A DNA stretch of 57,780 bases from a virus. Its lineage: Duplodnaviria > Caudoviricetes. A program made the translations under genes and the position numbers. The stretch covers positions 1 through 57,780 of the IMG/VR virus record IMGVR_UViG_3300032308_000478, one strand, 5' to 3'. Of the stretch, positions 28,249-50,216 are shown piece by piece (positions within the stretch are counted from its first letter, which is position 1; each line of letters opens with the position of its first letter). The notes under the pieces were generated by a model. That model was not told where the DNA came from. It worked only from the letters and a program-made list of their open reading frames with translations, and made no database searches.

Positions 28249-29022
28249 ATGGCTGACCGTCTTTTTTCCACACTTGTCCCCAGACTGAACCCAAGCGTAC
28301 CGGGGTGCCCCCAGCGTACCCTGCAGGATGCTGTCAGGGACTCAGCTATACGCACCTGCGAGCGCACACTAGCGTGGAGATACCTGCACCCAAACTTCAA
28401 CTTGCTACCCGGAGTACATGAGTACGCTTACAACAAGCCGATTAACGCCGATGTGCATGCGGTGTTTGAAGCGGTTATGAATGATGAGCCGCTGGAGCGA
28501 CTGCCGCTCGAAGAAGCTATCGCGAGATACCCTCAGTGGGCGGATCTGTATAGCGGCCAAGACCCTTCAGTTGTGTGGAGTCTAACTACAAGTAATACGT
28601 TTAACAGTAATCAGTACAACACTAGCTTGTTCAATAACAACTCAACGTATGCACTACCAGAGTCCATCGTTGCGGACGGCGGCGAACCACGGCTCATAAC
28701 GCAGATCACGCCGGACAAATACATAGTCCTACCCCTACCAGACGACAACAAGACATACACGATGCGTATGTTCATGGCGCTTAAGCCTAAGCGTTCTGCT
28801 GTTGGTATGGATGAAGTAGCTTTCAACGATCTTGAAGACGCTATTATGCACGGTGCCTTGCAGGACCTTCTTGTTCTCCCAAACGTCCCTTGGACGGATA
28901 GGGACTTGGCATCGTTCCACGCAAAACAGTACATATTTTTTACAACTGAACGCAGGGCGCGGGCTAACCTAGGCAATGCACGCGGATCTTTTCGCGCCAG
29001 AATGCAACCTTTTGGGAATTGA
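28249..29022 (+). CDS. Second adaptor/tail tubular protein
   Basis: VPGCP...CERT..WR; AI.HGAL..L...P..PW. Confidence 0.75.
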   Translation: MADRLFSTLVPRLNPSVPGCPQRTLQDAVRDSAIRTCERTLAWRYLHPNFNLLPGVHEYAYNKPINADVHAVFEAVMNDEPLERLPLEEAIARYPQWADLYSGQDPSVVWSLTTSNTFNSNQYNTSLFNNNSTYALPESIVADGGEPRLITQITPDKYIVLPLPDDNKTYTMRMFMALKPKRSAVGMDEVAFNDLEDAIMHGALQDLLVLPNVPWTDRDLASFHAKQYIFFTTERRARANLGNARGSFRARMQPFGN

Positions 29023-30562: not shown

Positions 30563-30684
30563 AAAACAAACCAATGATGTATAAAAAAGGCGGCATGGTA
30601 TTCAAACCGTGCGCCGGATGTCCCAACCCTGCTAAATGCAAGACCATGGGCAGCTGCATGGCGAAATCCAAAAAAGGTAAGTAG
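30559..30684 (+). CDS. 41-aa basic Cys4 peptide (not in ORF track)
   Basis: MKNKPMMYKKGGMVFKPCAGCPNPAKCKTMGSCMAKSKKGK; coupled at both ends. Confidence 0.7.
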   Translation: MKNKPMMYKKGGMVFKPCAGCPNPAKCKTMGSCMAKSKKGK

Positions 30685-33589: not shown

Positions 33590-35452
33590 GTGAAGGTTCC
33601 CCCCGCATCAGTACCGCCTCGGGTCGGCCTCTCTACGCCTGCTGTACCGTCAACCGGCAGGCGACAAGCAGAAGCGCCGCAACCGCAGAAAGTTACGTTT
33701 GTCGCGCGCGGCATAGACCCTAAAATGCTTGAGCGCGCAAAGAAAATGAAAAAGGATGGCGCTCCCTTTGGTGGTGATGGTAGGACAAGCTATGGTAAAG
33801 ACCGCTTAGCCGAAGAAATCTGGAAAGAAACGGGGTTGTGGGAATACCAGCCTAACGTCTGGGTAAAAGAAATTCCAGACAACACCGCGTCAGTTAACGC
33901 GCCGCTTCCGGGGCCAGAGGTTCTTGGCAACAGGCGGCTTAATCGAATACCGGGACCGGGCGAACCATACACCACTGGAAGAACGCTTGCAAAAGGCCCG
34001 ATGTCGCAAATTATACCGCGAGGGCCTTACGACGAGCTATACCAACTTTATCCTGAACTAAAAAACATACCTGTAGAAGTGTTTGACGACTACATATACG
34101 GCGGCGGTAGTTTGATCGGGGGCTATTTACAACGGGGAACCGGCAACGTCTACCTTGGTAAAGCCCGCAACACTCAGAGTAACTACGATGGCTCGTCAGC
34201 TGCAACTGATACCGATCAACAAATACGCAACGCGCTTGCAGCAACAGGGGTTCACGAAACGCAACATATAGTAAACATACTGGACCGTATTCGGGCTGCA
34301 AAGTCAAATGTTGCTTACGGCGATAGAGGGTCTGAAGTTCTTGCCACCGTAGCAGAGAAAAGACGAAATCTTACGCCGCAACAACGGCGTGAAACACCCC
34401 CTATGTTCAACCCGGACGTGTTTAATTTTGAAGGTTACAGAGAACCAAAACCGCCGAATTTACAAAGTCCTAAGCGGTGGGATAAAGAAGATGTGCAGTC
34501 GGCTCCGCTTTTATATGGCCCGTACGGCGTAACTGAACCAAAGCGTTCAGTTAAAGAACTGGACCCTACTCTTAATCGGCAGTACAAAGAAGGCGGTATG
34601 GTAGGTCCCGGTGGCAAACGTATTGCCCCTAATACAGAGAGTTCTAATATGAGAAACGAATCACTGGACCTCCCGCCAGTACTGCAGAGCCTCATGTCCA
34701 TGCCGGTTGCAGGCGGTCAGGCCGCAATGCAGAGCGGGATGCAGGAACTCAGGCAGCTTGGTATCCTGCCTACGTATCAGGAGGGCGGCATGGTCGGTCC
34801 CGGTGGTATGCCTATCCGCCCGCAGGGAGGGCTCGCACCAGCTGGCCAGCCAGCAGAACCGCTGTCTGCGCAGGCCATGGAACTGGAAATTCAGAAGTTC
34901 GTGCAACAGAACCCACAACAGGTTCAACAGATGCAGCAGGCAATTATGTCGGGCCTCCAGTCTGGTGAGATCACCATGCAGGAGCTTAACATGATGACGC
35001 AGCTGGCCAAGGTGGCAGCGCAGAACCCGCAGATGTATCCGCAGATCCGACAGTTTGCTATCCAGCAGGGCATCGCTACGGAGCAGGACCTCCCGCAAGA
35101 GTACGATCAAGGTCTTGTATTTGCCATCCTTCTTGCCGCGAAGGCAGCGCAGACGCAGTCACAGGGCGGGGCAATGCAGCCCCAGCAGGGAGCGCCTCCG
35201 GTCCCGGCTCCGCAAGGTGGTATGCCCATGGGTGGTATGCCTCAGGCCGCGATGCAGGCTCCGGTCGCCTCGATGCGTATGGGAGGATCCCTCCCCACCA
35301 ACAGCAAGAACAGGGACGGCAGCGTTCCGATTATTGCACATGAAGGGGAATATGTTATCCCATCAGACGTGGTCCGTAGAAAAGGCACGGACTTCTTTGA
35401 CAAGATGATTGGGAAAGATGGGTCGAATGGAACTGGTTCTTCTAACAGCTGA
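33590..35452 (+). CDS. Internal virion/ejection protein with LPD23-like + HExxH module and a Q/M-rich region
   Basis: EEIWKETG..W.KEIPD, ELYQLYPELKNI, HETQH; C-terminal VP..AHEGEYVIP..V...G. Confidence 0.75.
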   Translation: MKVPPASVPPRVGLSTPAVPSTGRRQAEAPQPQKVTFVARGIDPKMLERAKKMKKDGAPFGGDGRTSYGKDRLAEEIWKETGLWEYQPNVWVKEIPDNTASVNAPLPGPEVLGNRRLNRIPGPGEPYTTGRTLAKGPMSQIIPRGPYDELYQLYPELKNIPVEVFDDYIYGGGSLIGGYLQRGTGNVYLGKARNTQSNYDGSSAATDTDQQIRNALAATGVHETQHIVNILDRIRAAKSNVAYGDRGSEVLATVAEKRRNLTPQQRRETPPMFNPDVFNFEGYREPKPPNLQSPKRWDKEDVQSAPLLYGPYGVTEPKRSVKELDPTLNRQYKEGGMVGPGGKRIAPNTESSNMRNESLDLPPVLQSLMSMPVAGGQAAMQSGMQELRQLGILPTYQEGGMVGPGGMPIRPQGGLAPAGQPAEPLSAQAMELEIQKFVQQNPQQVQQMQQAIMSGLQSGEITMQELNMMTQLAKVAAQNPQMYPQIRQFAIQQGIATEQDLPQEYDQGLVFAILLAAKAAQTQSQGGAMQPQQGAPPVPAPQGGMPMGGMPQAAMQAPVASMRMGGSLPTNSKNRDGSVPIIAHEGEYVIPSDVVRRKGTDFFDKMIGKDGSNGTGSSNS

Positions 35453-35859: not shown

Positions 35860-36990
35860 ATGTCTAAAGGCGTCAAGAAAGTCCTTGGGTTTGTAGTTGC
35901 GATTGCTATTCCGTTTGTGGCGGTGCCTCTTGCCGGGATGCTGGCAGCAAGCACCGGGATCGCCGCATTTGGCGGGTTTCTTGGATCAGCTGCTGTAGGC
36001 GCTGGACTTGGTGCGGCCAACGCTGCACTTACCGGAGGCAACGTAGGACAAGGCGCACTATTCGGAGGGATAGGCGGAGGGCTTGCAGGGGCTGCTGGAG
36101 GAGCGTCAGCGTTTGCAGGTGCGCCAACGGCGGGAACAGCAGGAGCGGCGGGAACAGCAGGAGCGGCGGGAACAGCAGGGACAGCAACCTCCGTACCGAC
36201 GACTTCGTCAGCTGTTGCAGATTCGCTTCAGTATGGTTTTAACGCGGCGGGTAACGTAGCAACCCCAGTAGCAACTACTTTCATGGAAGCACTTGGACAG
36301 GTACCAAGTACGCTTGCAGCGCAGTTCACAGACCCAACTAAACTGGCGGAGCTTACACTCAAGGCCGGTTCTATGCTTGCGTCCGGTATGATGACATCAG
36401 ATCCAATGGCGGGGGTCCCTGAAGAAGAGCGTCAGGCTGTTGAGTTGCTCAAACAAGACCTTTTGAGAAAACAAGCAACAGATCAAAACCTGTTCAACAA
36501 ACAGATAGCACTCGCCGATGATGTTATAAATGAAGCCAAGCAGTTTAATCCTGAGTACTTTGCACAGCAAAAGGCCAAGGAGCAACAGCTTCTAGGCGCT
36601 GCCGTGGAGAAACAAACAACAGAGGATTACAGCAAGGGTCTCGGGCAAACAGGTAGGGAAGCCGCTCTTGCGGCAGACCGGCAAAGACGCCGCCTTGATA
36701 CCGGGCGTAATGCAAGTACTGCGTTCGCGTCAGGACTTGCAACCGGAAGTGATATTAGAAATCAAAAGATTGCTTACGGCGCAGGGCTGATGCCTAGGTC
36801 CGCACCTGAGGGTGCTTACGGAAGTATGCTGGATATCTATAGAGGCTATTCGGATCGTTCAAGAACTGACCAGCTAGGAATCCAACAATCGCTTGGTGAT
36901 ATTACTACCACGCTGTTCCCGCCCAAGGCAAAACCTAAAACTAAACCACGGGTTGGTTTAAACACGCCGTCTTCTATTGGATCCGCGTAA
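35860..36990 (+). CDS. Ejection (DNA transfer) protein, Gly/Ala-rich hydrophobic N-terminus
   Basis: Glycine-zipper membrane segments followed by coiled coil. Confidence 0.75.
   Translation: MSKGVKKVLGFVVAIAIPFVAVPLAGMLAASTGIAAFGGFLGSAAVGAGLGAANAALTGGNVGQGALFGGIGGGLAGAAGGASAFAGAPTAGTAGAAGTAGAAGTAGTATSVPTTSSAVADSLQYGFNAAGNVATPVATTFMEALGQVPSTLAAQFTDPTKLAELTLKAGSMLASGMMTSDPMAGVPEEERQAVELLKQDLLRKQATDQNLFNKQIALADDVINEAKQFNPEYFAQQKAKEQQLLGAAVEKQTTEDYSKGLGQTGREAALAADRQRRRLDTGRNASTAFASGLATGSDIRNQKIAYGAGLMPRSAPEGAYGSMLDIYRGYSDRSRTDQLGIQQSLGDITTTLFPPKAKPKTKPRVGLNTPSSIGSA
36130..36179 (+). repeat. 18-bp tandem repeat (AGTAGA peptide units)
   Basis: GCGGGAACAGCAGGAGCG about 2.8 copies. Confidence 0.85.
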
Positions 36991-37002: not shown

Positions 37003-38985
37003 ATGAACATCGGCGGTCTTCTGACACGTAGCTTTGGTACTGGTACGACGGCCTTCAATCAAGGTGAGCGGGACGCGCTCACGCGCATGCGCGACCGTCA
37101 GGCGTTCGTTGACGAAGAAGAAGCGCGGCGGCGTAGGGCGGTGGCTGAACAAGCTGCATATGCAGATTCGCTAGGCCCAGAAACTCCTTTTGCGGGTGTG
37201 CAGGGAGCGCTATCGGGTGTTCCCGGAGCCATGACATCCATGGCATTCAAAATGGGCACTCCTCCCCCCGCTGCTACTGGTGTTGGTGTTGCTGCTTCTG
37301 CTCCCGCCGCTGCCCCCACCGCCCCTGCTGGTGTTGCTCCTGCCGCTGCCCCTACTGCTGGTGTTACTGCTCCTGTTGCGCCTCTTCAGATAAAAGGCAG
37401 GACTGCCGGAAAACCGAAGTCAACCGCTGAACAGTATTATGATAAAGAAATTCTATCTACGCTAAATGTACTAGCCGATCATATGGCTAAGAAACCGCTG
37501 CGGATAGCCACCAAGTCGGAAGTACCGGGTGCCGGTCCTTCTATCGAATATAAAACATGGGACACAAAACGTCAGCAGTTGGAGGATAGGGTAAAGTCTC
37601 TGGAAGCTGGGAGGATCTCCGCTGCTCCTACCCCAGTAACGCGGGATACCACCGTTAGAACTGGGGAGCAGTTCAAAGAACTAGCTAGAGTTAATAGCCA
37701 AACTCCCGCAGCAAGGGTTTCTGCAGCTACGCAGCGTGCTTTTGCGACTACCTCCGAAGAGGCCATCAAGAATGTGCTGGGTCGCGAAGGTGGGTACGCT
37801 AACAACCCCGCTGACCGAGGCGGAGAGACCAAGTACGGCATCAGTAAAAGATCGTATCCAAATCTGGATATAGCCAACCTGACTAAGGAAGAAGCGGCTG
37901 CGATCTACAAGCGTGATTACTGGGACGGGATGAACATCGACCAACTCCCGCCTGAGATGCGCGAAGTGGTGTTTGATGCTGCGGTTAACCAAGGAAAAGG
38001 TTTCGCTAGTAAAGCTTTGCAACAATCCGGTATGGATCCGGCAAAATTCTTGGCGCTAAGAGAGCAACGCTACCGCGACATTGTTGCAAGAGACCCTAGC
38101 CAAGCGCAATTTACTGGCTGGTTTAATCGCGTTAATGAGTTCAAGGGAGTTACTACCCAACTCGGAGCTACTCCGTCTGCTGCATCCAATGCATATGTAC
38201 CTCCGGTCGAACAGGCAAAACCTGCCGATTACCGTAACGCTGTGCCAGTAGTAGATGCTGAATATAACCAGACGCTAGCGCTTAGGCAGGCTGCATACCA
38301 GAGGGCCGTACTAGCACGAGATGAGCAGGTACCCGAATTGTATGCGCAGTCGGTAGCAGAACTTCGACAGCTTGATATGAAGCTGGTGCACCTGCAAGGC
38401 ATGGTTGGTCTTGGAGATATTGTAGATGACCCGATGGCAACGCAAAGACTTTCGCAGGTGATATCCCACTATCGCGGGAAAGAACCGGGGTACTACATAC
38501 TCCAGCCGCGACCTGACGGTAAGTACAACGAGATCGTGAACGGAAGACTTTCCCAGCAGGGAATTACGCTTCAGGAAGTTATCGACAAAACTCGCATGAT
38601 GTTTGACCAATCCTACGCAGCGGCAGTGAACGCGACCCGTGCGGCGCAAAGCGAAGCTGCGATTAAGACTTTCTCTGAACTTCAGATACTGGCCGCTAAA
38701 TCTGGGTTCACTATCAACGAGAAACTGGCAGATAGACAAGCAGAAGCTTACATAGAAACACTAAAAGGAAACAATGCATACAGGCAGGCCGTTGAGGTTG
38801 CCCGTATAAACAACCAAGGTAAGACGGTTGATCCTAAGTTCTTCAATACCGCAGAAGGCGTCACGCTCATGAGCGTGGGTAATCAGTTGTTCAAAGTCCT
38901 TCTACAGGAAGACGGTAAGGGCGGTCAGGTTCCGGGCTCAGAATATCTAGCGCCTGTAACTGGCGGGCTCATGCCGACACAATAG
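37003..38985 (+). CDS. Ejection protein with a GH108 lysozyme domain
   Basis: EGGYANNPADRGGETKYGIS..A..IYKRDYW..FDAAVNQG..GWFNR. Confidence 0.88.
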   Translation: MNIGGLLTRSFGTGTTAFNQGERDALTRMRDRQAFVDEEEARRRRAVAEQAAYADSLGPETPFAGVQGALSGVPGAMTSMAFKMGTPPPAATGVGVAASAPAAAPTAPAGVAPAAAPTAGVTAPVAPLQIKGRTAGKPKSTAEQYYDKEILSTLNVLADHMAKKPLRIATKSEVPGAGPSIEYKTWDTKRQQLEDRVKSLEAGRISAAPTPVTRDTTVRTGEQFKELARVNSQTPAARVSAATQRAFATTSEEAIKNVLGREGGYANNPADRGGETKYGISKRSYPNLDIANLTKEEAAAIYKRDYWDGMNIDQLPPEMREVVFDAAVNQGKGFASKALQQSGMDPAKFLALREQRYRDIVARDPSQAQFTGWFNRVNEFKGVTTQLGATPSAASNAYVPPVEQAKPADYRNAVPVVDAEYNQTLALRQAAYQRAVLARDEQVPELYAQSVAELRQLDMKLVHLQGMVGLGDIVDDPMATQRLSQVISHYRGKEPGYYILQPRPDGKYNEIVNGRLSQQGITLQEVIDKTRMMFDQSYAAAVNATRAAQSEAAIKTFSELQILAAKSGFTINEKLADRQAEAYIETLKGNNAYRQAVEVARINNQGKTVDPKFFNTAEGVTLMSVGNQLFKVLLQEDGKGGQVPGSEYLAPVTGGLMPTQ

Positions 38986-38994
38986 GAGGGGCTG

Positions 38995-41900
38995 TTGCCA
39001 CCTAATACGCCTACGCTCCCGTCTCTCGACCAGACACTGCTGGATATCCGTGTACCGGGGCGCGTGCAAACGCCCACCGCAGGCGTTGGCTTGCAGAACC
39101 TTGCGCCGTCTTCTGCTGACCCAATGATCAACCTTCGTCGCATGGCGGAGGAGTCAACTAGATCTCTGGAAAGCCTGCGCGCTGCCCCAGCGCAGACGGA
39201 AAAGCAACCGTTCCAAGTTCAGTATGGTCCGCAAATTGGGTACAGTCCGTCTACTGGTAAGATCGGCGTCAACGGGTTTGTCTTCAACAAAGACGACTAC
39301 GCCAACGCTCTTGAGTCAGAGAAATACTTAGGCGGCGCACCGCAGGCACTTCCGCGTAACGAAGTAGCAGACTGGGTTCCGCTCAGCCAGAACGCTTACA
39401 GCGCCCTGCTCAAGAACATAAGAGAGCCCGGCATCGGCGATCTGTTCATGCGCAACGTGGACATTGGGTTCGCGGGATCTCAGCAGCTGCTGGGGTCTGG
39501 CCTGCAACTGGTTGGCGCGGAGAAGCTTGGGTCTGATATCGCAGGCGGTGCGCAGCAGAGACTGGACCAGCTGTCTCCCTTCCAGCGTGAGTTCACTAGC
39601 ATCCAAGACGCTGGTGATGTAGGCGAGTTCCTTATCGCTACGTTTGGACAGTTCACGCCGTCTGTGCTTGAAGCAGTTGTGACCGGTGGCGTAGGCTCTA
39701 TCGCTGGCAAGACTATTGCAAAACAACTCCTGTCCAAGGAAGCCAAAAAGCAGTTCTCCAAGGACGTGCTGGCATACCAAGCCGCCAAGAAGGCTAAAGA
39801 TACTGCAACGATGAAGGCGCTTGGGCCTGCCGTCAGGGAGAAGGCCGGGTACTATGGAGCGCTAGTCCTTAACGGACTCAACAGCTACCGTATGGGTGCG
39901 TCGGATGTGTACGGCGAACTGCGCCAGCAGGGTGTCGATCCCAACGACGTGAACGCCAAGATGGCGGCACTGGCATACGGCCTGCCCTATGGTGCGCTTG
40001 AAGCACTACCTGAGTTCTTCGCATTCAATAAGATACTCAACCCAAAATATGCGGTTACTACTCCTTCACTGGCGCGACGTGTTGCGTCAGGTACTGCCAT
40101 CGGTGGACTGGGTGGCGGTGCGACCGAAGCAGGCCAAGAAGCCATCCTCATGGCAGCTGGCGAACAGGTCGCTGACGCTGACTACTCTGACGAGTATGCC
40201 AAACGTCTGGTAAATTCGTTTGCTGCAGGCGCTGCCTTCGGTGGCCCTGTCGGCGGAGCGATCAATGCTCTTGCTCCTGTCAACCTTCTCAAGACGCCGC
40301 CTGCGCCTGCGGCTGCTGCACCGCCAAGACTAGCAGAAAACGCGCCCGTAGGTACGCAGGGGGAATTGTTTGGCGGTACAGAACTTGGCAAGGCTCCGGG
40401 TCAGATGGAGCTTTTCCCCGGTGCGGATCTAGGTACCGCGCCTGCGCCTGTTGGCCCTACACAACTGGATCTGTTCGCACCCTCGCCCGCTGTCCCAACA
40501 GCCGGGCTTACTGCTCCATTTGTAGACTACACTGCGCAACGTGAACTGGATCTTGGGCCTCCCTTCGGTCCCGATAGTTTCCCTCGTCCCTCAGGTATGC
40601 CACGTGAAGCTGGTGCCGGGTTCGACGCTGCCGCTGTTCCTGTTGCCCCGCCTGTTGCTGCCGCTGCGCCTGTTGTCGCGCCTGTTGGTACGCAGATGGA
40701 GATGTTTGCGCCTGAGGGTCTCGGCCAGACTACTGCTCTGCCTCCTGCTCCGCAGCCGGTCGTATCTCCTATTCCTAGCTCGGCGTTGGGCGGGCAGCGG
40801 GAGATGTTCAGCTATCAGCCATCATCCGGTACAATCAGGCGCAACAGGTTGCAGCAGCGACCGCCCATAAGCTTCCCCAACGATCCTTATCGAGTTAGCC
40901 CTAATATCCTGAGCCGTCCGCAGCGGCAACAAGAGCCGCCCCCGGCCCCTGTCGTACCCCCCACTGCGCCCGCTGGTCCCACTGGTCCTGCACGCGGAGC
41001 CGCCAAGATTAAAACAGCTGGGAAAAAGTCCGCTGCTGCTTCTAAACCTGCCGCTGCGCCTAAGCCTGCTGCGTCTGAGGCTACGGCACTAGACGATGCG
41101 CGTGCCATGGTAAAAGACGTTACTGCCCCTGGTAAGCTACCAAACAGAGAGCGGCTGAAGAACTTGGCTGCTAAACTGAAAATCAAAACCACTAAGAGAG
41201 ACACAAGAGAAGATATATACCGCCGTATAGAAGAGGCGGTTGCTTCTTTCGAACCCGCTCCGCCGCCTACGCCGCCCACCGGTAAAAAACCCGTACCCAA
41301 AAACTTGAAGCAAGGTTCGGCAAAAGCGAAAGCTGCTGCGTCTAAACCTGCTGCGTCCAAAAAAGAAACACTGCAGAAAGGACCTAAAGGTGCCGCAGTA
41401 GATGAAAACGATGGCGCTGTTAGAGTCGAGCGAGACAAAGGGCTGCGTTATGTAGAATACCAAACTTCAGTAGCAGATATAAACGAGCGTCTGCAATTTG
41501 CTATTGCAGATTCTGATAACGCTGTCCGCCTGTTTGCTAAGAACCCTGCGGCTGCTATCCGTAGCATTTCGCAACATATCACAGCGGCTGTCGGTGAAAA
41601 AAAATACGCAGTTTCCAATACGCTTAAAAAACTCAAAACAGATTTTGAAAATCTTGAAGCTCGTGCCCGCGAAGCTCGTGCCCGCACTGGTGAAACCACT
41701 AACGTATTGAAACAAGAATTTGAAAAACTTGTTGAGCAAGTAAAAACTGAATACGCTGCGTTTAGAGAGAGAGAGGCAGACCTTGTCCCTAAAGAGCCAA
41801 GCCCAACGACGGTGGCTGGAACAAAACAACCCGCAGCTGCTGGAGCAACTGCTGGCAGAGGGCGAGCAGCTGAGCCTGCCGGAGCGAGCACCGCCAAAGA

Positions 41901-44900
41901 AGGACCTGCAGAGGATAAAGGGGTTTCCAAAAAGCCGACTGTTCGGGAAATCAAAACTGTAGAACAAGCGCAAGCTGTCTTCAAAGAACTTGTCGCCACG
42001 GACTTCCCTAAGACAGACGTGACTAAGATTGAGGAGTTTAAGGCTGCGGCCAAGAAACTTATCGAGTTTGTTTTCTTGGCTTCTACGCTGGAAACAAACT
42101 CAGGCAAACGCAAAGCAATAAAGGAAAAGCAGGAAGAAATTTCTGCAGCATTTAGGGTTATGGATGCCAGCAACAGGCAGGCGTTCAACGAAGTATTTGC
42201 GGATGTTATAAACAACCAAGACAAAAAATCCGTAGACGCAATTTATAAAACCGGTGCTCAAACTGGACAGGTTCGTCCGTGGTACGCCTATGCAGTTTCA
42301 CACGATATAAAGCTAACTATCCGTATCAATATGCAGGACAGGGCGAACGCAGCCCTTGCTTCTACTATTAATAAGTTCAACACGGAAGCGTCTGCGGTAG
42401 ATCCTGCCACCCCTAAGACTGCGCCTGCGGCAGTTGCCGAGTCTGTCGATGAACCTGCGCCCGCAAAGAACGCCAAGTACATCGAAGCCGTAGGTGCCCT
42501 ACCCGACACCGATAGACCGGGCCTTGTTAAACTGGCGCAAAATTATGTAAGAAACGGAGTCATAACCAAAGAGCAGTTTGACAAGCTCATAAAAGAAAGC
42601 GAGGGTCTAAAAGACGCTCTACTGGAGGTACTAGGTACCGCCCGGTTCATCCGCAATGACGGCACAGCACTCCCTATTAACAAGGGCGTTGATTTCCTCA
42701 AGGCCAAGGCCACGGTCACCAAGATCGTCAACGGGTTCAAGGTCAAGCCCAAGGTCCACGTATACATAAACATCCAGAACCTGAAGCTCAGCAACCCGGA
42801 ACTCTATGAGCGGGCGCGGCGGGCGCGTAGCGCACCGGAGGAGTTCGAGTCCGGTAACTTTGATGGGTATGCGTTTGGTAATGATATCATCATCCTTACC
42901 AGCAAGATACAGACTGATACGCATCTCAAGACAGTTCTGGCACACGAGACGCTGGGTCACTTCGGCCTGCGCTCTATCTTCTCTGATGCTGACCTGACCA
43001 CCCTGCTGACTGAAGTACTTGCGACTGACCGCAGGCTTCGGAGCAAGGCGCGGGAGAAGGCCTTTCTATACAAGATAGATGAGATTGAGGCGGCTGAAGA
43101 AGCACTCAGTGACATTGCTGCGCAGCTTGAGAACAACACACTACTCAAAGTGTGGAACGCCATCAAGGACGCACTCAACCTGATTGGCATCAAGTTCGGC
43201 GACGAGATGGCACGCTACCTCATCCGGCTCGCAGGGCGTTACGTCAAGAAGGGCGAAGAAGCCCCGGCCACTGTGTTCAACGTAGCTACGATACGCGCCA
43301 ACATGAGTGATTTGGCAATTGAAGGTGCCATCGGGCGCTTCTCTGCCAGCCCGCTTCCGGCTGTCAGTCCTACGCTTGCGTACAGTGCAGCGTTTGACGC
43401 CGCCGTTGCTGGTGCGGTGGATCTGCAGAAAAAGTATAGCCAAGGCAAAACACTGCTCCCGCGTTCCACGGCAGCGGCTGTTAAAGGCAGTCGTAACATA
43501 TGGCGGAAAGTGCAGTCACGTACTGCGAAAGTCTCGGAAGCTATCCAGTCACTGGATAGTAAGGGCGATCTCAGTGAGGGTCTAGCCAAGCTGTATAAGC
43601 TATTCCAAGACCAAGCAAATAACACGCAACGTCTTATCCAGAAGTACATGGACATGCTGAAGTTCAGCGTGACAGATTCATATGCTACGGAGGAAGAACG
43701 TCTTCAAGCTGGTAAGATGGCGTCCCATTACACGCTATACCGGCAGAACCTTCTGCGTAAGACAGTCAGCATAGACGAACTTGCCAAGGGGGTGCGCAAG
43801 GCGGTTGCGGATGAGGCAGGCAAGCCTGTCACTGAAGACATGCAGAAGACGCTTGATACTGCTAAGATTGTACTGAAGGCGCTGAATGCTAACGAAGAGT
43901 TCGTCAATCTGGATGGCGATGGACTGCCTGTTGCCGACACTGATCTGGACAGCGACAAAAAACAGAAAGGCATCAAGAATACCACGCTCCTCAGAAGGGT
44001 AGCTCGCGAGCTTGGTGTTGAAGTTCGTACAGTGCAGGGCGATCTCGCCAAAATCGGTCCGCTTGGAAACATGGACAGCGGCATCTTCGTCTTTAATACG
44101 GACAACTTGAACAAGATTACCAGCTTTGTCGAACCTGACATCAATCTGTTTAGGAAAGGGTTCGACGCACTGGTAACTGAAGATGCAATGGCAGCAAACA
44201 TCAAGCCGGTAACGCTGAAGTTTGAGGCTATGCCTGACCTTACGAAGGACAGTAAGGAATGGATTATGTTCAAGGAACTGCTCACGGTTGAGCAGGAGAA
44301 AGCCAAGGACCTTCTGCAATCCAAGTACGAAAGATACATTGAATATCTTGACGAGATGAAACGAAAACTTGGTCTTATCAAGTCAACGGTTCCGATTGGC
44401 CAGCGCGAAATCGATTTCTTCTTTGATGTCAAAAACAAGTATCTCGAAATCATTCACCTGTCGCAGGCTAAGGACGGCACTGTCACACGCATAGATACGC
44501 CAACCGCCAGAACACTTAGGAATGGCGATCAGTTTTTTGTCGAAGTTCTTAAGGCGCTACACAGCAAGCCCAAGCTCAATGACTGGAAAGGCATCAAACG
44601 CGATGCTGCAGGCGACCAAATAGAAATCGCAGAAAAGTATATTACAGGTCCGCTTAAAACTGCGGTTGGTATTGATGATAAGTTCATAGCAGAACTTGAA
44701 CACATGAACACGCTTGGCATCAGCCAAGAGACCCAGATAAAGTACATCAATCCGTTGTATGCGGATCATGCTGTTCTTAGTACGGCTATATATAATGCAG
44801 AAGAACGGGCAAAGAACACGATTGCCATGGGCTATGTCCCGCTCATGCGCCGTGGGAACTGGGAAGTCAGGCTTGAAGCATACGACCCCAGTACGGATAG

Positions 44901-47337
44901 AGCAATTGAAACAGGCAAAGGGATCAAATCCCTGCTTCCCTATTTCATGGTGGCTGATGAAGCCGCAGCCAACGACATGGCCTATCTTCTCAAAGAGCCT
45001 TTCGAAAATCAGGAGTTCCTGTTCGAAACGGGAGAGCCTCCGCTGGCAGGAGAGCCAGCGCCCACAACTAAAATCAAGTTCCGCGTAGTAACTTCAGAGA
45101 AAGGCAAGCTTCCGCCGCTCGGTAGCTCCGTGGATTTCGGCGACTTCCTGCGAACGCTTCTGCGCATGAACATTGATCTTAACCCTGATCAGAAAGAAGC
45201 TATCATCCAAGCCATGACGGCGCAGGAATCTGCTGCCCGCCGCAACATGCTGCGTTCTGGTACGGTTGGTTGGAACCCGGATATCGTACAGAGCGTAACT
45301 ACTGACGTGCAGACGGGCGCGCATGTAGCCAGCGGTGATCGGTACTCTCATCGCACCGACGAGATCATGTCGAACCGCGACAACTGGTACGGCAGTGAGA
45401 AGCAACTTAGAGATCTGCGTACTGCATGGGAATCAGCCAAGGCCAGCGGCAATGCAGCTTTGGCCCATATAGCGCACGAGAACTACTCTAGATATGCATA
45501 CCGCTTTGTCCACATGGCGGGCAAACGCCCTAACTCTCCTAACAAAATCAAGTTCTGGAAGGCTGACGGTACAACGATAGACATAGAGACGTTGGGTGAA
45601 GGTGAACGCTTCAGAGACGATGGCAAGAAACTGCTCAACTACTACCAGCGGTCGGATAACATCATTGACCCGACTGAAGGCATCCTGACTGAACAGGGCG
45701 GCGCGTTGAAGAACGCAGCTGTCTTTCTGCAACTGAGTTTGAACGTGTCTTCCGGTCTGGTTCAGGCCATTACGCTTCCGTTCAACGTCATCCCGTATCT
45801 CTCCTTCTATAATCCGAAGCGCGGTTATGGCGGCGGGTTCGGCCTTGTCGCGTCAACGTTGGAGATATTCAGCGCAATTGGGAATGTAGCAAACCCGCTC
45901 AAGCAAGAAGCATTGCAAGACGCTGCAGCTCTTCGCAGTATGATAGAGAACAACGAGTATGGAAGTTACGGCCTTACGCTCGACGAAGCGTTCATGTTTC
46001 TCGGACAGGCTGAGAGTGGCAACCTTCTTCCGGCACAGACCAACACCCTGCTGCATACGTCCCGCAGCGGTGTCAGCCGAGGACTTCCCGCCCAGATACT
46101 CAAGGTGTCGATGTCGTTCTTCAGCTGGATGGAGCGGACCGTCCGTATGGTAACTGCTCTTGCAGCTTACAGGCTCTACAAGCAGCGAGCGATTGCAGCA
46201 AAGATTGACGGCGGTATCTTTAATACAAAGAACATAAACGAACTCAATACCAGCCAAGTATATAAGGATGTCTACGAAAGCACCGGCCAAGCGGTCATCA
46301 AGACCAACGGTGACTACAACCAATACAACAGACCAGAACTTTTCCGTAACCACTTCACCCAGTACATCTTTATGTACCGGATGCCGCAAGTTGTGACGAT
46401 GCAGATGGCTGCTGCTCTTCCGATAAAAGGACAGATAACTTTTGCCGCTACTATCATTATACTGGCCGGTATAGCGGCTCTCCCCGGAGCCGAAGACCTG
46501 TTCGACATCGCGGATACAATTATCCAGTTCTTTAAGCTCCCGATCCCAAGTGTTGAAGCTGAGATTGCTAATCTCCTGAACAACGTCACGGGTGGGCACG
46601 GCAGGATACTTATGAACGGCATCCTTAACGAAGCCGGGTTCAACGTGTCGAGCAAGATATCAATGGGAGATATCCTGCCGGGTTCAGGAATGTTCCGCGC
46701 AGGGGCTGATCCGGGTCGAGAGCTGATGCAGCTGGCGGGGCCGGTGTTCTCGGCTATGCACGGTACGTTGAATACAGGTTTCCAGTTGGCGCACTGGGGC
46801 GTGGCCAGCACTGGACTTACTGACAAGACCATGACGCTGCCTGAGATCCTGAGGAACTCGCCGTCCTCTGCCGTCAAAGGTTGGGTTGACAGCCTGACTT
46901 ACCTGAACGATGGCAGGATCACCGACGCCAAGGGTAAGGTTATCTCCGAGGATGTCTCAACGGAAGTTATACTTGCGCGTATGCTCGGGTTCTTCCCGGC
47001 AGAATCTGCACAAACTAACCGGGTCATCCGTCTCAGTCAGTATACAGCAGACTATGCCAAGGCAATCGCTGGAGGTTACCGCTCTGCCTATGTCCAAGCA
47101 TATGTACGCAAGGATTTCGCCCGCATGCGGGAGATCGCCAATGATGTGCGGGAATGGAACAAGAGCGCTAAAGACACGCCGTTCTTCATCAAGGACTTCG
47201 AAGAGCGGGCGAGGAAGGCCGGTAAAGAAGCGTCCATCCCCGCCGCTGCACGTTACCTCAAGGTTGCACCGGATTCGTCCGAGGCTATGGTCAATGATCT
47301 GATCAGCATCTATGGGCTGGAAGATGGCACAGGTTGA
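38995..47337 (+). CDS. Giant (2780 aa) ejection/polyvalent protein with a zincin-like motif
   Basis: TTG start after AGGAGG; AHETLGHFGL motif with a downstream EEA; last gene of the virion operon. Confidence 0.85.
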   Translation: MPPNTPTLPSLDQTLLDIRVPGRVQTPTAGVGLQNLAPSSADPMINLRRMAEESTRSLESLRAAPAQTEKQPFQVQYGPQIGYSPSTGKIGVNGFVFNKDDYANALESEKYLGGAPQALPRNEVADWVPLSQNAYSALLKNIREPGIGDLFMRNVDIGFAGSQQLLGSGLQLVGAEKLGSDIAGGAQQRLDQLSPFQREFTSIQDAGDVGEFLIATFGQFTPSVLEAVVTGGVGSIAGKTIAKQLLSKEAKKQFSKDVLAYQAAKKAKDTATMKALGPAVREKAGYYGALVLNGLNSYRMGASDVYGELRQQGVDPNDVNAKMAALAYGLPYGALEALPEFFAFNKILNPKYAVTTPSLARRVASGTAIGGLGGGATEAGQEAILMAAGEQVADADYSDEYAKRLVNSFAAGAAFGGPVGGAINALAPVNLLKTPPAPAAAAPPRLAENAPVGTQGELFGGTELGKAPGQMELFPGADLGTAPAPVGPTQLDLFAPSPAVPTAGLTAPFVDYTAQRELDLGPPFGPDSFPRPSGMPREAGAGFDAAAVPVAPPVAAAAPVVAPVGTQMEMFAPEGLGQTTALPPAPQPVVSPIPSSALGGQREMFSYQPSSGTIRRNRLQQRPPISFPNDPYRVSPNILSRPQRQQEPPPAPVVPPTAPAGPTGPARGAAKIKTAGKKSAAASKPAAAPKPAASEATALDDARAMVKDVTAPGKLPNRERLKNLAAKLKIKTTKRDTREDIYRRIEEAVASFEPAPPPTPPTGKKPVPKNLKQGSAKAKAAASKPAASKKETLQKGPKGAAVDENDGAVRVERDKGLRYVEYQTSVADINERLQFAIADSDNAVRLFAKNPAAAIRSISQHITAAVGEKKYAVSNTLKKLKTDFENLEARAREARARTGETTNVLKQEFEKLVEQVKTEYAAFREREADLVPKEPSPTTVAGTKQPAAAGATAGRGRAAEPAGASTAKEGPAEDKGVSKKPTVREIKTVEQAQAVFKELVATDFPKTDVTKIEEFKAAAKKLIEFVFLASTLETNSGKRKAIKEKQEEISAAFRVMDASNRQAFNEVFADVINNQDKKSVDAIYKTGAQTGQVRPWYAYAVSHDIKLTIRINMQDRANAALASTINKFNTEASAVDPATPKTAPAAVAESVDEPAPAKNAKYIEAVGALPDTDRPGLVKLAQNYVRNGVITKEQFDKLIKESEGLKDALLEVLGTARFIRNDGTALPINKGVDFLKAKATVTKIVNGFKVKPKVHVYINIQNLKLSNPELYERARRARSAPEEFESGNFDGYAFGNDIIILTSKIQTDTHLKTVLAHETLGHFGLRSIFSDADLTTLLTEVLATDRRLRSKAREKAFLYKIDEIEAAEEALSDIAAQLENNTLLKVWNAIKDALNLIGIKFGDEMARYLIRLAGRYVKKGEEAPATVFNVATIRANMSDLAIEGAIGRFSASPLPAVSPTLAYSAAFDAAVAGAVDLQKKYSQGKTLLPRSTAAAVKGSRNIWRKVQSRTAKVSEAIQSLDSKGDLSEGLAKLYKLFQDQANNTQRLIQKYMDMLKFSVTDSYATEEERLQAGKMASHYTLYRQNLLRKTVSIDELAKGVRKAVADEAGKPVTEDMQKTLDTAKIVLKALNANEEFVNLDGDGLPVADTDLDSDKKQKGIKNTTLLRRVARELGVEVRTVQGDLAKIGPLGNMDSGIFVFNTDNLNKITSFVEPDINLFRKGFDALVTEDAMAANIKPVTLKFEAMPDLTKDSKEWIMFKELLTVEQEKAKDLLQSKYERYIEYLDEMKRKLGLIKSTVPIGQREIDFFFDVKNKYLEIIHLSQAKDGTVTRIDTPTARTLRNGDQFFVEVLKALHSKPKLNDWKGIKRDAAGDQIEIAEKYITGPLKTAVGIDDKFIAELEHMNTLGISQETQIKYINPLYADHAVLSTAIYNAEERAKNTIAMGYVPLMRRGNWEVRLEAYDPSTDRAIETGKGIKSLLPYFMVADEAAANDMAYLLKEPFENQEFLFETGEPPLAGEPAPTTKIKFRVVTSEKGKLPPLGSSVDFGDFLRTLLRMNIDLNPDQKEAIIQAMTAQESAARRNMLRSGTVGWNPDIVQSVTTDVQTGAHVASGDRYSHRTDEIMSNRDNWYGSEKQLRDLRTAWESAKASGNAALAHIAHENYSRYAYRFVHMAGKRPNSPNKIKFWKADGTTIDIETLGEGERFRDDGKKLLNYYQRSDNIIDPTEGILTEQGGALKNAAVFLQLSLNVSSGLVQAITLPFNVIPYLSFYNPKRGYGGGFGLVASTLEIFSAIGNVANPLKQEALQDAAALRSMIENNEYGSYGLTLDEAFMFLGQAESGNLLPAQTNTLLHTSRSGVSRGLPAQILKVSMSFFSWMERTVRMVTALAAYRLYKQRAIAAKIDGGIFNTKNINELNTSQVYKDVYESTGQAVIKTNGDYNQYNRPELFRNHFTQYIFMYRMPQVVTMQMAAALPIKGQITFAATIIILAGIAALPGAEDLFDIADTIIQFFKLPIPSVEAEIANLLNNVTGGHGRILMNGILNEAGFNVSSKISMGDILPGSGMFRAGADPGRELMQLAGPVFSAMHGTLNTGFQLAHWGVASTGLTDKTMTLPEILRNSPSSAVKGWVDSLTYLNDGRITDAKGKVISEDVSTEVILARMLGFFPAESAQTNRVIRLSQYTADYAKAIAGGYRSAYVQAYVRKDFARMREIANDVREWNKSAKDTPFFIKDFEERARKAGKEASIPAAARYLKVAPDSSEAMVNDLISIYGLEDGTG

Positions 47338-50177
47338 AGCTGGCCTAGGGTAAGGTTCATCAGTGCGTTTTCGGTATCGTCTATGATCCCCACCAGTCTG
47401 GGGTGACTGAGATTGATACCGACTACGTAGGTCTGTGCTGTCTTGGCTGTAGTATCCTTGCCTAGGTACGCCTTGTTGCTCTTGGGTGTGGCCAGTACGT
47501 TTTCCGCAGTGAGATCCTGCAGTACGGTACGGTAGTCGTATCGCTTCTCTGCAAGCCAGCGACGGAAATGCACCCGGTCTACAAGCATTGTGCCCCTGTC
47601 AAACTTGTCGTTGAGTGACTTCCTGTAGAGGTCCAGTCTGATGCGTATGTCTTCACGGGGCATGCGGTGGTGGTCAGGTTGCGGCTTCATCCCTGATGTA
47701 TGCATGACGGTCACAAGCACGGCTGCATGATCGTTGACGTACTCAGAGACGAGGTCGAAGGTGTCGCGCTTGATGTCTGCCACAGAGCGGCGGATGGCTC
47801 CCAGCTGCGCAAGCATCCACTCAATGGAGCGTTCGTACTTGAAGGGTATCAGTCCCCAGCTGTGCGCTAGGTGGAAGCTGAGATCCGCAAGCACAACCGC
47901 TGCCTCCCAGTACCGTTCCTGCCCGCCAAAGCTGGCCTTGTACTTGGTGCGGAAGGCTTCGTAGTGACGGGAGATCATGGCCTTGAGAGCCTGCGGCCCT
48001 AGCTCCAGCAGCTTGGATACAAACTCCCGACCAATGAACCCATAGTTACTATGGATATGATCGTAGATCATCTTGCCTGCGGTGCTGTCCCTAGAGAACA
48101 GTGGATGCGACGGCACGTTGATCTCAAGAAGTCTGGCCAGCTGGGCTTCTGTCTCTGTCCCGGCTGCGATCAGCATGGATGCGATGCTGGTGTTGGTACT
48201 GAGTACAACAGGTATGAAGTAAGGCTTGCTGTCGCGCTCCTCCGTGTTGCGGTTGAGACGTATCTTGTCCGCGCCCTGTGTCACTGAGTAGAGAAAGTCC
48301 CCAATGTCCTTGGAGTTCATCATGGTCGCTTCGTCTACAGTCATGGGCATGTTGCGGTAGAGAGACATGCGGTTGAACAGAGCGTTGACTGTGAACTTAC
48401 TCGTGAAGTGCAGCTTGTCCGGGTTACCCCAGAGGCTCTGTCCCCACAGCTGGGTCAGTGTCTTGCCGCCGCCAGTGGGTCCGTTGAGAGATACGGTCAG
48501 GCCCTTGAGTCCTGTAAACTCGTAGAGCGGAGCCGATAGCATGACGCCCATGGCGAACATGTGCCACGGCATGTCTGCCCGTTCGAGTACCTTGAGCCCA
48601 TCCACCTGCGCCTGAAGGGAGCCTTTAGATTCCCATAGCTCCCCGCCCTGCCGCTGCATCGGAGCGGACAAGGTGATATGCTCCTCGTGTGCGGAGCCAC
48701 TGTCGTCAAGACGTATTACAGAGTCGCCCATGACGAACTGCGAGAACTCTTCCTTCCACCCCATGGAGGAGTAGAGGTTAGTCATGCGGGTCGTCTTCTT
48801 CAGGCTGTCTACATATGAGCGCAACATGTACTGAAAGCTTTCTGTCAGCTTCTTGTATTGGAATATGATGCCCTGATCTGCCAGTGCAGTGGCGAACTCA
48901 CGATGGCCGTCAGTCAGCAGAGCCTGACGCAAGACAAGCGGTTGCCACCCTACGTGAGACCTGTCCCACATAAAGCGAACGACTTCGTATCCCAGTGTCT
49001 CGTCCTTGCCATAGCTTGTAGGATAGATGTCGAACGCACACACATCCGTATCGACGCCGTCGATAACCATCTTGATGCCCTGTGCTGTGCGCTTGAATGG
49101 CTTGGGCAGGGGCACTGCCTGTGCTATGGGGTCTGCTGCTGAACTCTGCGCAACTTCTTTATAGGACTGTCCTGTGTGGACAGGTGATGCGATCCTGCCC
49201 TTGAGCTTGCAGGTTTTGCAGCCGTCAGGGTTCTCGCTTTCGAACTTGGTGCAGAGTGTAGGACCAGTGGCGTTCTTCTTCCACTGCTCCAGCTTCCTGA
49301 CAGTCTCATGCTCCGAGAACTGAGGGTGCCCCTTGCTCCACTCAACAGCCGTCTGTTCGGGGTTCTCGCAGAATGCAGCCACCCCTAGCAGCGCATACCA
49401 AAGCGGCTCAGGCACGCTGTCAGGCTTGTTGATGGCATCCCTGATCTGCTGGCACTTGCTTACAATAACTCCCGGCACGCCAAGCGGGTGATCGCTCTTT
49501 ACTGCTAGGTTATCCAGCAGTGTGGTCTTGCGCACCGGTTGTGCCTGCAGTGGGGCTTTGAAGACGCCTGCCCCGCCAAGGACACGCGCGAACTCCAGTG
49601 GATCCACGTCCGCTGCGTCACGAATAAGCTTAGCTTTTTTACCGCTGCCCCTATTAGTAATACCGACAGCCCTGAGAACGCGGGCGCTGTCTTCTGTTAC
49701 CGAGGGGTCGATGATGACATGCCTTGCGGCCAGTACCTTTAGCGCAGAGGCCAGAGGTTGCCACTCTTCGGGCGTCAGGTCCCGTGTCATTACCCAATAC
49801 ATGTGCAGTCCATTGCCGCTGAAGACCATCAGCGGGTCGGGCAGTCCTGTCTTGGATATGAACTCTGCTACTGCGCGGCCTGCGTCCTGCAACGTGGCAT
49901 AACTATTGCGTAGCTCACCGGATGCGTCGTACTTACCGACGTCTACGTCGAGTGCGATGACCTTGGTTCTATTGACATTAGCCTGTTTCCTCCCCTTGTT
50001 TTCTACGAACGAAGATATAGCGTAGTATATGTTTCTCCCCATCTCATCCATGCGGACAGAGATGCTGGCTAGTTCTTCTATCGTGGCAAAAAAACCGTGC
50101 TGTCTGTTATCTACGTTGAACGCACAGTAGTACCCGGATGACGGAAGAACTCGCCGGAGAAACTCCAGCGTGTCCAT
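47310..50177 (-). CDS. Primase-helicase (AEP-type primase, PriCT, DUF927 helicase)
   Basis: ALDVD, SGNGLH.YW, EPLWYA, C..F..C..C, Walker A GPTGGGKT, Walker B TVDE; likely start MDTLEF. Confidence 0.9.
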   Translation of the reverse strand: MDTLEFLRRVLPSSGYYCAFNVDNRQHGFFATIEELASISVRMDEMGRNIYYAISSFVENKGRKQANVNRTKVIALDVDVGKYDASGELRNSYATLQDAGRAVAEFISKTGLPDPLMVFSGNGLHMYWVMTRDLTPEEWQPLASALKVLAARHVIIDPSVTEDSARVLRAVGITNRGSGKKAKLIRDAADVDPLEFARVLGGAGVFKAPLQAQPVRKTTLLDNLAVKSDHPLGVPGVIVSKCQQIRDAINKPDSVPEPLWYALLGVAAFCENPEQTAVEWSKGHPQFSEHETVRKLEQWKKNATGPTLCTKFESENPDGCKTCKLKGRIASPVHTGQSYKEVAQSSAADPIAQAVPLPKPFKRTAQGIKMVIDGVDTDVCAFDIYPTSYGKDETLGYEVVRFMWDRSHVGWQPLVLRQALLTDGHREFATALADQGIIFQYKKLTESFQYMLRSYVDSLKKTTRMTNLYSSMGWKEEFSQFVMGDSVIRLDDSGSAHEEHITLSAPMQRQGGELWESKGSLQAQVDGLKVLERADMPWHMFAMGVMLSAPLYEFTGLKGLTVSLNGPTGGGKTLTQLWGQSLWGNPDKLHFTSKFTVNALFNRMSLYRNMPMTVDEATMMNSKDIGDFLYSVTQGADKIRLNRNTEERDSKPYFIPVVLSTNTSIASMLIAAGTETEAQLARLLEINVPSHPLFSRDSTAGKMIYDHIHSNYGFIGREFVSKLLELGPQALKAMISRHYEAFRTKYKASFGGQERYWEAAVVLADLSFHLAHSWGLIPFKYERSIEWMLAQLGAIRRSVADIKRDTFDLVSEYVNDHAAVLVTVMHTSGMKPQPDHHRMPREDIRIRLDLYRKSLNDKFDRGTMLVDRVHFRRWLAEKRYDYRTVLQDLTAENVLATPKSNKAYLGKDTTAKTAQTYVVGINLSHPRLVGIIDDTENALMNLTLGQLQPVPSSSP

Positions 50178-50191
50178 AAGCGAGCCCTTTC

Positions 50192-50216
50192 GTGCGAGGG
50201 GTGATGCCCCTCGCAC
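50192..50216. other. Hairpin just upstream of the primase RBS
   Basis: GTGCGAGGGG-TGATG-CCCCTCGCAC. Confidence 0.65.

Follow-up and report, generated by a model that had tools for sequence, protein, structure and literature searches.

Bacterial proteins dock on the DNA sliding clamp, DnaN, through short clamp-binding motifs (CBMs). Passages of PMC11139829 give the canonical forms as Q-aliphatic-x-[L/M]-[F/L] and Q-aliphatic-x-[L/M]-x-[F/L], with QLxLF as the strongest form, QLDLF as the consensus peptide, and a position 2 that tolerates substitution. According to the same passages, CBMs are found in disordered tails, termini, or loops, the C-terminal position is the classic context, and the clients include Pol III alpha (QADMF), Pol II, Pol IV, Pol V (QLNLF), and Hda (PMC11139829). 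Here we describe an array of six motifs of this kind in a single linker of a giant phage protein, P0001 (2780 amino acids [aa]), and a similar motif at the end of an AAA+ ATPase encoded by the same phage. Both genes are in the window, by which we mean the whole stretch of DNA analyzed. It is the complete 57,780-bp virus record IMGVR_UViG_3300032308_000478, which has direct terminal repeats. The array was first noticed in a reading of the DNA letters and their translations (here, the original prediction).

P0001 has the same Q-x-x-[L/M]-F and Q-x-x-L-x-L motif classes as the bacterial clients, one of its copies is QLDLF itself, and in both cases the motif-bearing segments are disordered or terminal. 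However, the bacterial clients have one or two motifs, whereas P0001 has five or six in one disordered linker. They are also host DNA enzymes, whereas the carrier here is a giant phage virion-type protein in which three copies have G or R at position 2 and binding is predicted. A phage precedent is MuC of phage Mu, which binds the host clamp via QHDLF and QPDLF (PMC12867686). That paper gives the N-terminal consensus of the Mor/C family as Qx[D/E][L/M]F, and it reports that MuC variants with a non-aliphatic position 2 work and that overproduced MuC is lethal through its clamp motifs. MuC and Mor are therefore like P0001 in being phage proteins with Qx[D/E][L/M]F motifs for the host clamp, of which MuC has two. 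They are unlike it in being small transcription factors made after infection, whereas P0001 is a 2780-aa structural-type protein with five or six motifs plus the AAA+ ATPase tail, and no link to transcription is evident for it. Other mobile elements have similar proteins. Insertion sequence (IS) transposases reportedly use the host clamp, and RK2 TrfA (QLSLF) and Tn7 TnsE are also clamp users. In these mobile-element proteins, as predicted for those described here, a motif for the host clamp provides a link to host replication, but each has a single motif, on a replication or transposition enzyme, and none is delivered in a virion.

As a carrier, P0001 resembles the PLxRFG giants, such as gp60 of Pseudomonas phage H66. 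They have a C-terminal domain of ~400 aa in common, and each is a giant protein that closes the structural module. However, H66 gp60 has no Qxx[LM]F in its 3787 aa, despite a linker of similar composition. Therefore, the array is specific to this uncultured clade. P0001 also resembles the polyvalent proteins of phages and conjugative elements, of which P1 DarB is an example. These are very large, multidomain proteins with an embedded peptidase-like domain, and they are thought to enter with the DNA. Unlike them, P0001 has no Pfam large polyvalent-protein-associated domain (LPD) or polyvalent-protein domain, and no other Pfam family matched it at E ≤ 0.1. The word "clamp" is absent from the text of a polyvalent-protein paper (PMC5512222). 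In the literature searched (mostly titles and the starts of abstracts, with subscription journals not covered), no virion, ejection, or polyvalent protein was described as having clamp-binding motifs; the original prediction likewise knew of no such multivalent array in a virion protein. The novelty lies in carrier and form: motifs of a known class occur in a giant phage protein, in several copies, alongside an ATPase tail that co-varies with them.

All six motifs are in frame, and their predicted coordinates are exact (Table 1). Qxx[LM]F occurs five times in aa 441 to 610, against a shuffled mean of 0.05, and none of 20000 composition-preserving shuffles reached that count. The tighter pattern Qx[DE][LM]F fits all five pentapeptides (shuffled mean, 0.003). 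Outside the array, the ~2600 remaining residues of P0001 hold a single Qxx[LM]F (aa 2006), and the remaining 49 open reading frames (ORFs) that we scanned (14,707 aa) have three matches in total to Qxx[LM]F or QxxLxL. One sequence of this kind, QGALF in ORF 35860-36990, was set aside as a chance match because it lies in a Gly/Ala-rich hydrophobic stretch and tblastn gave no alignable relatives over the site; QDLLVL is present in ORF 28249-29022. The hexapeptide QRELDL alone is not significant, because 922 of 20000 shuffles contained at least one QxxLxL, yet it is conserved in the nearest homologue, P0002.

The original prediction called the motifs tandem. The cluster of six is real, but the spacing is irregular (45, 60, 75, 156, and 102 nucleotides [nt]), and Tandem Repeats Finder found no DNA repeat spanning the motifs. 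A tandem-repeat origin of the array was therefore rejected. Beyond the 15 bases that encode a motif, there is only one repeated pair, of 32 nt (40341-40372 and 40677-40708, at motifs 1 and 5; 81%), which hints at an old duplication. A separate 30-nt tandem repeat (2.0 copies, 87% match) is found at 40627-40687 on the + strand, where it encodes an Ala/Pro/Val-rich spacer between motifs 4 and 5.

Table 1. Positions of the giant protein, its parts and motifs, and other genes in the window
Feature	Position	Strand	Basis or remark
Giant protein gene (P0001, 2780 aa), PLxRFG-family virion-type	38995-47337	+	ORF, Shine-Dalgarno AGGAGG, NF032893; directly after the gene with the muramidase-like segment
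Helical N-terminal domain, aa ~80-426, ending in NSFAAG anchor	39232-40272	+	AlphaFold2 (AF2), invariant columns
Pro/Ala-rich linker, aa 430-700, predicted disordered, bearing the motif array	40282-41094	+	pLDDT below 50
Motif 1, QGELF, aa 455-459	40357-40371	+	Same in P0002
Motif 2, QMELF, aa 470-474	40402-40416	+	Same in P0002
Motif 3, QLDLF, aa 490-494	40462-40476	+	Equals high-affinity consensus peptide; same in P0002
Motif 4, QRELDL, aa 515-520, hexapeptide type	40537-40554	+	Inside block conserved with P0002
Motif 5, QMEMF, aa 567-571	40693-40707	+	Same in P0002
Motif 6, QREMF, aa 601-605	40795-40809	+	QLDMF in P0002
Lys/Arg-rich low-complexity segment, aa 701-800	41095-41394	+	Composition, sequence
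Central domain with invariant H1317-E1318-x-x-G1321-H1322	42688-43257	+	Invariant columns, AF2
C-terminal PLxRFG ("tail-700") domain, aa 2332-2741	45988-47217	+	NF032893, phrog_11358, tblastn
MoxR-like AAA+ ATPase, 365 aa	3433-4530	-	Last five residues QSMMF, codons 3436-3450
DUF2201 metallopeptidase-like plus VWA-like protein	1174-2322	-	PF13203, PF09967
Large terminase	Structural module	+	
Portal/adaptor	12869-14914	+	
Major head protein	16199-17128	+	
Two tail-fiber-like genes	18139-19938 and 22272-25196	+	
Internal virion protein	30684-33233	+	phrog_511
660-aa protein with muramidase-like segment	37003-38985	+	
Primase/helicase	47310-50216	-	
Helicase	51936-53483	-	
PD-(D/E)XK nuclease	54122-54784	-	
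PolA	55300-57171	-	

We compared the array with the CBM definition. QLDLF fits it strictly, and QMELF and QMEMF fit if Met is counted as aliphatic. The other three depart from the canonical form at position 2 only, with the Mor/MuC-type pattern Qx[D/E][L/M]F fitted. Their context was examined in an AF2 model of aa 1 to 700, built from a 28-sequence alignment. The predicted local distance difference test (pLDDT) score was below 50 over aa 430 to 700, secondary structure was absent over 430-652 and 654-700, and P, A, G, Q, S, and T together make up 0.60 to 0.64 of the linker. Therefore, the motifs sit in a predicted disordered region, the Pro/Ala-rich low-complexity linker that had been proposed as their carrier. 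The related ATPase motif is at the extreme C terminus. The linker pentapeptides and QRELDL are best read as selected short linear motifs of the CBM class.

To follow the motifs through the family, a search with aa 1 to 700 collected 80 full-length proteins of 1981 to 2924 aa, query included. At least one Qxx[LMI]F was present in aa 300 to 1000 of 78 of the 80. The linker was taken to be the 420 residues that follow the conserved N-domain anchor, and 79 of the 80 proteins have this anchor. These 79 linkers contain 176 Qxx[LM]F motifs, compared with 7.5 expected from shuffling, so the motif class is conserved in homologues, whereas there is a single copy of the reverse pattern, F[LM]xxQ. Motif density is 5.30 per 1000 aa in the linkers versus 0.41 in the rest of the same proteins, and the background is 0.276 (1802 other frames of related loci; 569,281 aa). 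The commonest forms are QLPLF (64), QLDLF (23), QGILF (22), and QGELF (8), and QLSLF also occurs. Leu occupies position 2 in 113 of the 176 motifs, and every one of the 176 has Leu or Met at position 4. Two linkers have no motif, 16 have one, 46 have two, five have three, seven have five, and three have six. IMG/VR contains 130 relatives, of which 79 loci were included. These yielded 73 giant proteins; nine without the anchor were excluded, and 57 of the 64 counted have at least one motif.

P0001 and its nearest homologue, P0002, are identical at 29 of 31 motif positions and at only 92 of 180 other linker positions, and an insertion of ~84 residues in P0002 between motifs 3 and 4 leaves both undisturbed. 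Thus, the motifs are kept while the linker diverges, which the original prediction had proposed as a check. On a quick IQ-TREE tree of 123 distinct N-domains, which has several long branches, arrays of three or more motifs require at least eight changes on well-supported branches. Therefore, array size is labile, with repeated expansion. Many members also have hexamer-type elements (QGVLD[IL]F, QGALQF, and QxELPF). In most homologues (P0003 to P0072; for example, P0004 and P0047), two pentapeptides in the linker at about aa 660 to 760 are embedded in longer conserved elements, PxQLPLFT(R/P)xQAPxPSRxExLRRG and AGQxxLFTQxGxPSxAAL(R/K)xAG, and a conserved GTQGVLD[IL]FGG lies further upstream. None of these longer elements is present in P0001.

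A second gene of the window carries the motif. The MoxR-like AAA+ ATPase ends in NQSMMF. It scores 26.4 bits with Pfam AAA_5 (cutoff, 22) and matches phrog_1297 ("ATPase") at 3.1e-54. A VWA-type gene is the usual partner of MoxR-type ATPases, and the nearby ORF 1174-2322 has DUF2201_N and a DUF2201 VWA-like domain. This DUF2201/VWA-like gene is conserved in all six genomes compared. We searched 25 related virus records for the ATPase. Twenty had a match and 19 had a visible C terminus, with one gene cut by a contig end, so that together with the window 20 phages could be scored. Eighteen of these ATPases end in Qxx[LM]F: ten in QDVLF, two in QEVLF, and one each in QSMMF, QSVMF, QNVLF, QTVLF, QSVLF, and QDILF. 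These proteins are only 44 to 60% identical overall, apart from the closest relative, at 84 to 85%. Among 1802 other frames of the related loci, the window's ATPase is the only one with the C-terminal motif.

In the two exceptions, records G006 and G016, the ATPase ends in GNLLW and KEYLY, so that Q and F are lost from the tail. These are exactly the two of 20 phages whose giant linker has no Qxx[LM]F. For the resulting 2-by-2 table (18/0/0/2), the Fisher probability is 1 in 190, uncorrected for phylogeny and obtained from records chosen to include motif-less giants. The motif-less lineages are at separate places on the N-domain tree, both on long branches. Because the two motif sets occur together and are lost together across the 20 phages, we take the giant linker and the ATPase tail to behave as one system with a common partner, and the ATPase probably addresses the same partner as P0001. 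The tail motif was not found in any of three N4-like gp24 ATPases, which are distant relatives, and the idea that it is general to gp24-like ATPases was rejected. The cultured Rhizobium phage RHph_TM27A (MN988461.1) is syntenic with the window's phage across the replication module (ATPase, metallopeptidase, PolA, RecB-like nuclease, and SNF2 helicase). Its 2307-aa giant protein has a Gly/Ala-rich N-domain and a Pro-rich linker similar to those of P0001, and this phage could serve as a motif-free comparator.

The DnaN families PF00712 and PF02768 gave no matches across the complete record, and positive controls were detected, which bears out the claim that the phage encodes no recognizable clamp. 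Because the motifs match the consensus closely, occur in two typical contexts, and are not accompanied by a phage clamp, we regard the host clamp as their likeliest partner, with somewhat better than an even chance of being right. We also asked whether a co-fold would place the array on a clamp. A P0001 fragment with three motifs (aa 446 to 503), modeled with two copies of E. coli DnaN as a stand-in, gave interaction prediction scores from aligned errors (ipSAE) of 0.55, 0.55, and 0.57, compared with 0.00, 0.00, and 0.01 for controls. In calibration, 51 of 78 solved complexes attained this mark, as did 2 of 108 mismatched pairs; scores of 0.60 or under included 5 of the 78 solved complexes and all 4 passing mismatches of 180. 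The runs agreed in at least 89% of contacts, partner pLDDT was at least 53, and no interface was reported. We count this model as a small addition and weak support for a clamp partner.

On balance, we lean modestly toward multivalent docking on the host clamp, tethering or recruiting it rather than acting as a sponge. The giant PLxRFG protein would enter the cell with the phage DNA, and each linker motif would insert into the hydrophobic cleft of a host DnaN, making the protein a multivalent clamp binder. The entering protein-DNA complex might then be anchored to clamps, or clamps might be concentrated at incoming or replicating phage DNA. The Lys-rich segment beside the array would possibly contact DNA, and the AAA+ ATPase, docked on the clamp via its C-terminal motif, would act in the same pathway. 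In a bolder variant, the array would act as a ratchet while the linker translocates into the cytoplasm. The timing could also differ, with P0001 meeting clamps late in infection, before packaging. In the fullest version of this idea, a large clade of uncultured phages would hijack clamps with a two-part system. The ejected protein would thread its disordered array into the cytoplasm and capture clamps where the DNA enters, so that, as a ratchet or tether, it links genome entry or early positioning to the host replication machinery; the ATPase would dock by its C-terminal motif on the same clamps and remodel or exploit them, and both parts would be gained and lost together. This version is speculative, and we consider it rather unlikely as a whole.

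Several points weigh against docking on the clamp. Clamp binding by the motifs is a prediction, and QGELF, QREMF, and QRELDL, with their non-aliphatic position 2, are outside the strict canonical CBM definition. Seven of the 64 anchored IMG/VR giants have no motif, and RHph_TM27A has no Qxx[LM]F in its giant protein (2307 aa) or ATPase tail. The homologues are kin, so that motif counts are not independent events, although the forward/reverse asymmetry and the contrast between motifs and flanks are unaffected by this. Co-occurrence with the ATPase tail points to a shared partner but not to which one, and a phage-encoded partner shared by both motif sets is possible. The co-fold pass with the E. 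coli stand-in may reflect memorized solved clamp-peptide complexes. The virion location is suggested by C-terminal homology to a protein annotated from mass spectrometry and by gene order, and the persistence of the linker through maturation and its arrival in the cytoplasm are presumed.

The client and the host are further difficulties. The original prediction included recruitment of clamp for the phage PolA. However, PolA, the helicase, and the primase-helicase contain no Qxx[LM]F or QxxLxL. Therefore, a recruited clamp has no visible client, and this part of the proposal is not sustained. The proposed alphaproteobacterial host and DnaN fared no better. Their sole hint is the 35.8% PolA identity to Rhizobium phages; these and Pseudomonas phage KPP25, at 33%, are the nearest cultured PolA matches. 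Relatives of P0001 are found in metagenome-assembled genome (MAG) contigs labeled Burkholderiaceae, Rhodoferax, Nitrosospira, Verrucomicrobiota, and others, and such labels are unreliable for phage contigs. With no tRNA genes in the 57,780-bp window, mixed MAG labels, and PolA matches of 33 to 36%, no host was assigned.

The alternative that survives best is that the motifs are selected but have a partner other than the clamp, either some different host protein or one encoded by the phage, such as an assembly, core, or replication factor. We see this as a minority possibility to be taken seriously. Co-occurrence (both motif sets in 18 phages, neither in the other 2) demands only a shared partner of any identity. 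The double loss in two phages and the absence in the Rhizobium phage are easily explained if a dispensable phage partner was lost. Also, the motifs of most homologues lie within longer conserved elements (LFTQxGxPSxAAL), exceeding a minimal clamp motif. Against this, the QLPLF/QLDLF/QLSLF spectrum, with L at position 2 in 113 of 176, is close to the clamp consensus and one copy is exact; an extreme C-terminal motif like that of the ATPase is typical of clamp clients; and the DnaN co-fold is weakly above its controls. We looked for a partner by comparing the gene content of four motif-bearing genomes with the complete motif-less G006 and the partial G016. No sizeable gene follows the motifs. 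The only differences were a poorly conserved gene and an 84-aa ORF (27356-27610, + strand), which is present in the four motif-bearing genomes and was not detected in G006, a genome on a long branch. As a partner lost along with the motifs, the 84-aa ORF is a weak candidate; alternatively, it may be too diverged for detection.

The original prediction also raised a clamp sponge, in which DnaN would be sequestered on entry and host replication arrested before phage gene expression. The array is multivalent, with five or six sites in the window and up to six in relatives, and the lethality of overproduced MuC through its clamp motifs indicates that titration can be toxic, but that toxicity required overexpression (PMC12867686). 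Only one or two pentapeptides are present in 62 of 79 family members. A particle contains few copies of an internal virion protein, compared with hundreds of clamps in a cell. Because few copies of the giant protein can enter a cell, tethering or recruitment is favored over titration, and on this stoichiometry, which uses general copy numbers, we hold a sponge to be improbable.

Another alternative is that the motifs are processing sites, at which either a head protease or the zincin-like domain of P0001 itself would cleave to free the domains of the protein. Polyvalent giant proteins have reportedly been proposed to undergo processing, and P0001 itself has a conserved HExxGH domain with a weak resemblance to the zincin fold. 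However, cleavage within the last five residues of the ATPase would be senseless, yet this tail motif co-varies with the linker motifs. The motifs are also confined to one linker rather than placed at every domain boundary, the five-residue H..H spacing departs from canonical HExxH, and the fold matches are all below Z 8. We therefore think processing very improbable. Finally, the linker is compositionally biased and the 32-nt pair suggests common ancestry of units 1 and 5, but the array as a chance product of low complexity, or as a functionless relic of recent internal duplication, is scarcely credible and is effectively refuted by the shuffles, the 176-to-1 ratio of forward to reversed motifs, and the conservation of motifs over flanks. 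It is also opposed by the lack of a DNA tandem repeat over the motifs and by H66 gp60 and the Rhizobium phage giant, whose linkers are similar in composition yet have none.

CBMs are a familiar DNA access route for host enzymes and a few mobile-element proteins, and their use by MuC was shown only recently (PMC12867686). If docking on the host clamp is correct, a conserved multivalent array in a virion-type giant protein would be a new phage route to the hub of the host replisome, possibly at entry, and the co-varying motif of the AAA+ ATPase lends weight to this view. Function could then be approached for the first time in a widespread family of ~2500- to 2900-aa proteins that has no Pfam annotation (80 clusters and 130 IMG/VR relatives), as well as in phage MoxR/VWA gene pairs.

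The frame of the P0001 gene is open through 2780 codons. It starts with TTG at 38995, and AGGAGG (38984-38989) lies 5 nt upstream. AF2 modeled the N-domain confidently, with block pLDDT up to 97 and helices (H132-426), and Foldseek found no fold match to it in the PDB at E ≤ 0.001. Directly 3' of the motif array is a Lys/Ala/Pro-rich stretch, AAKIKTAGKKSAAASKPAAAPKPAA..., with 25% K plus R in aa 701 to 800; aa ~640 to 700 are of similar character. The stretch brings to mind histone-H1-like DNA-binding tails, and the segment is possibly DNA binding. In the C-terminal half, a PLMRRG stretch (aa 1949 to 1954) is conserved in the family.

The central block, aa 1232 to 1421, is the best-conserved part of the family. 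Its invariant H-E-x-x-G-H is one residue longer than the zincin HExxH, conserved Glu residues follow downstream, and the AF2 core has pLDDT above 90. In a VIA-align comparison, the top rows (Z 5.8 to 4.2) were mostly small zincin-like proteins (Wss1/SprT/ArdC/YbeY-like), all under the caution level of Z 8. Foldseek returned only Pro-Pro endopeptidase and lethal-factor-like rows, which were weak (E > 0.2), and a PDB sequence-profile search found nothing significant (best E, 0.76). The domain may thus be weakly zincin-like in fold. Matches to it also occur inside bacterial contigs of 156 to 318 kb (an Agitococcus MAG, Nitrosovibrio tenuis Nv1, and a betaproteobacterial MAG), and relatives of the domain may therefore also reside in prophages or other integrated elements.

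The C-terminal domain identifies P0001 as a PLxRFG protein. NCBIfam NF032893 ("PLxRFG domain-containing protein") scored 105.2 bits against a cutoff of 100, with aa 2332 to 2741 aligned to profile positions 263 to 661 of 681, and phrog_11358 also matched. The domain contains a single strongly hydrophobic segment (aa 2481 to 2499). Relatives in cultured phages (Pseudomonas F116/H66-like phages and one Shewanella phage) cover only the last 9 to 15% of the protein, and none of these 25 matching tblastn records covers the N-terminal 80%. The GenBank note of H66 gp60 opens "verified by mass spectrometry as part," and that of its neighbor gp64 reads "... of the virion." From this C-terminal homology and from the gene order, in which P0001 comes after the phrog_511 and muramidase-domain genes, we infer that P0001 is probably located in the virion and delivered with the DNA, like other internal or ejected podovirus proteins.

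The rest of the window is laid out in two blocks. The structural module is on the + strand, from ~7.2 to 47.3 kb, and the replication genes are on the - strand (Table 1). The guanine-plus-cytosine content is 0.50 to 0.56. The two tail-fiber-like genes have a ~100-aa N-terminal module in common (phrog_8469), which suggests two receptor-binding proteins on one adaptor, and the longer of them has depolymerase/tailspike-like matches. Between the internal virion protein gene and the giant gene, ORF 33590-35452 (+ strand) encodes a 620-aa protein that matches LPD23 (large polyvalent-protein-associated domain 23) below threshold, at 20.2 bits where the cutoff is 27 (E 5e-4).

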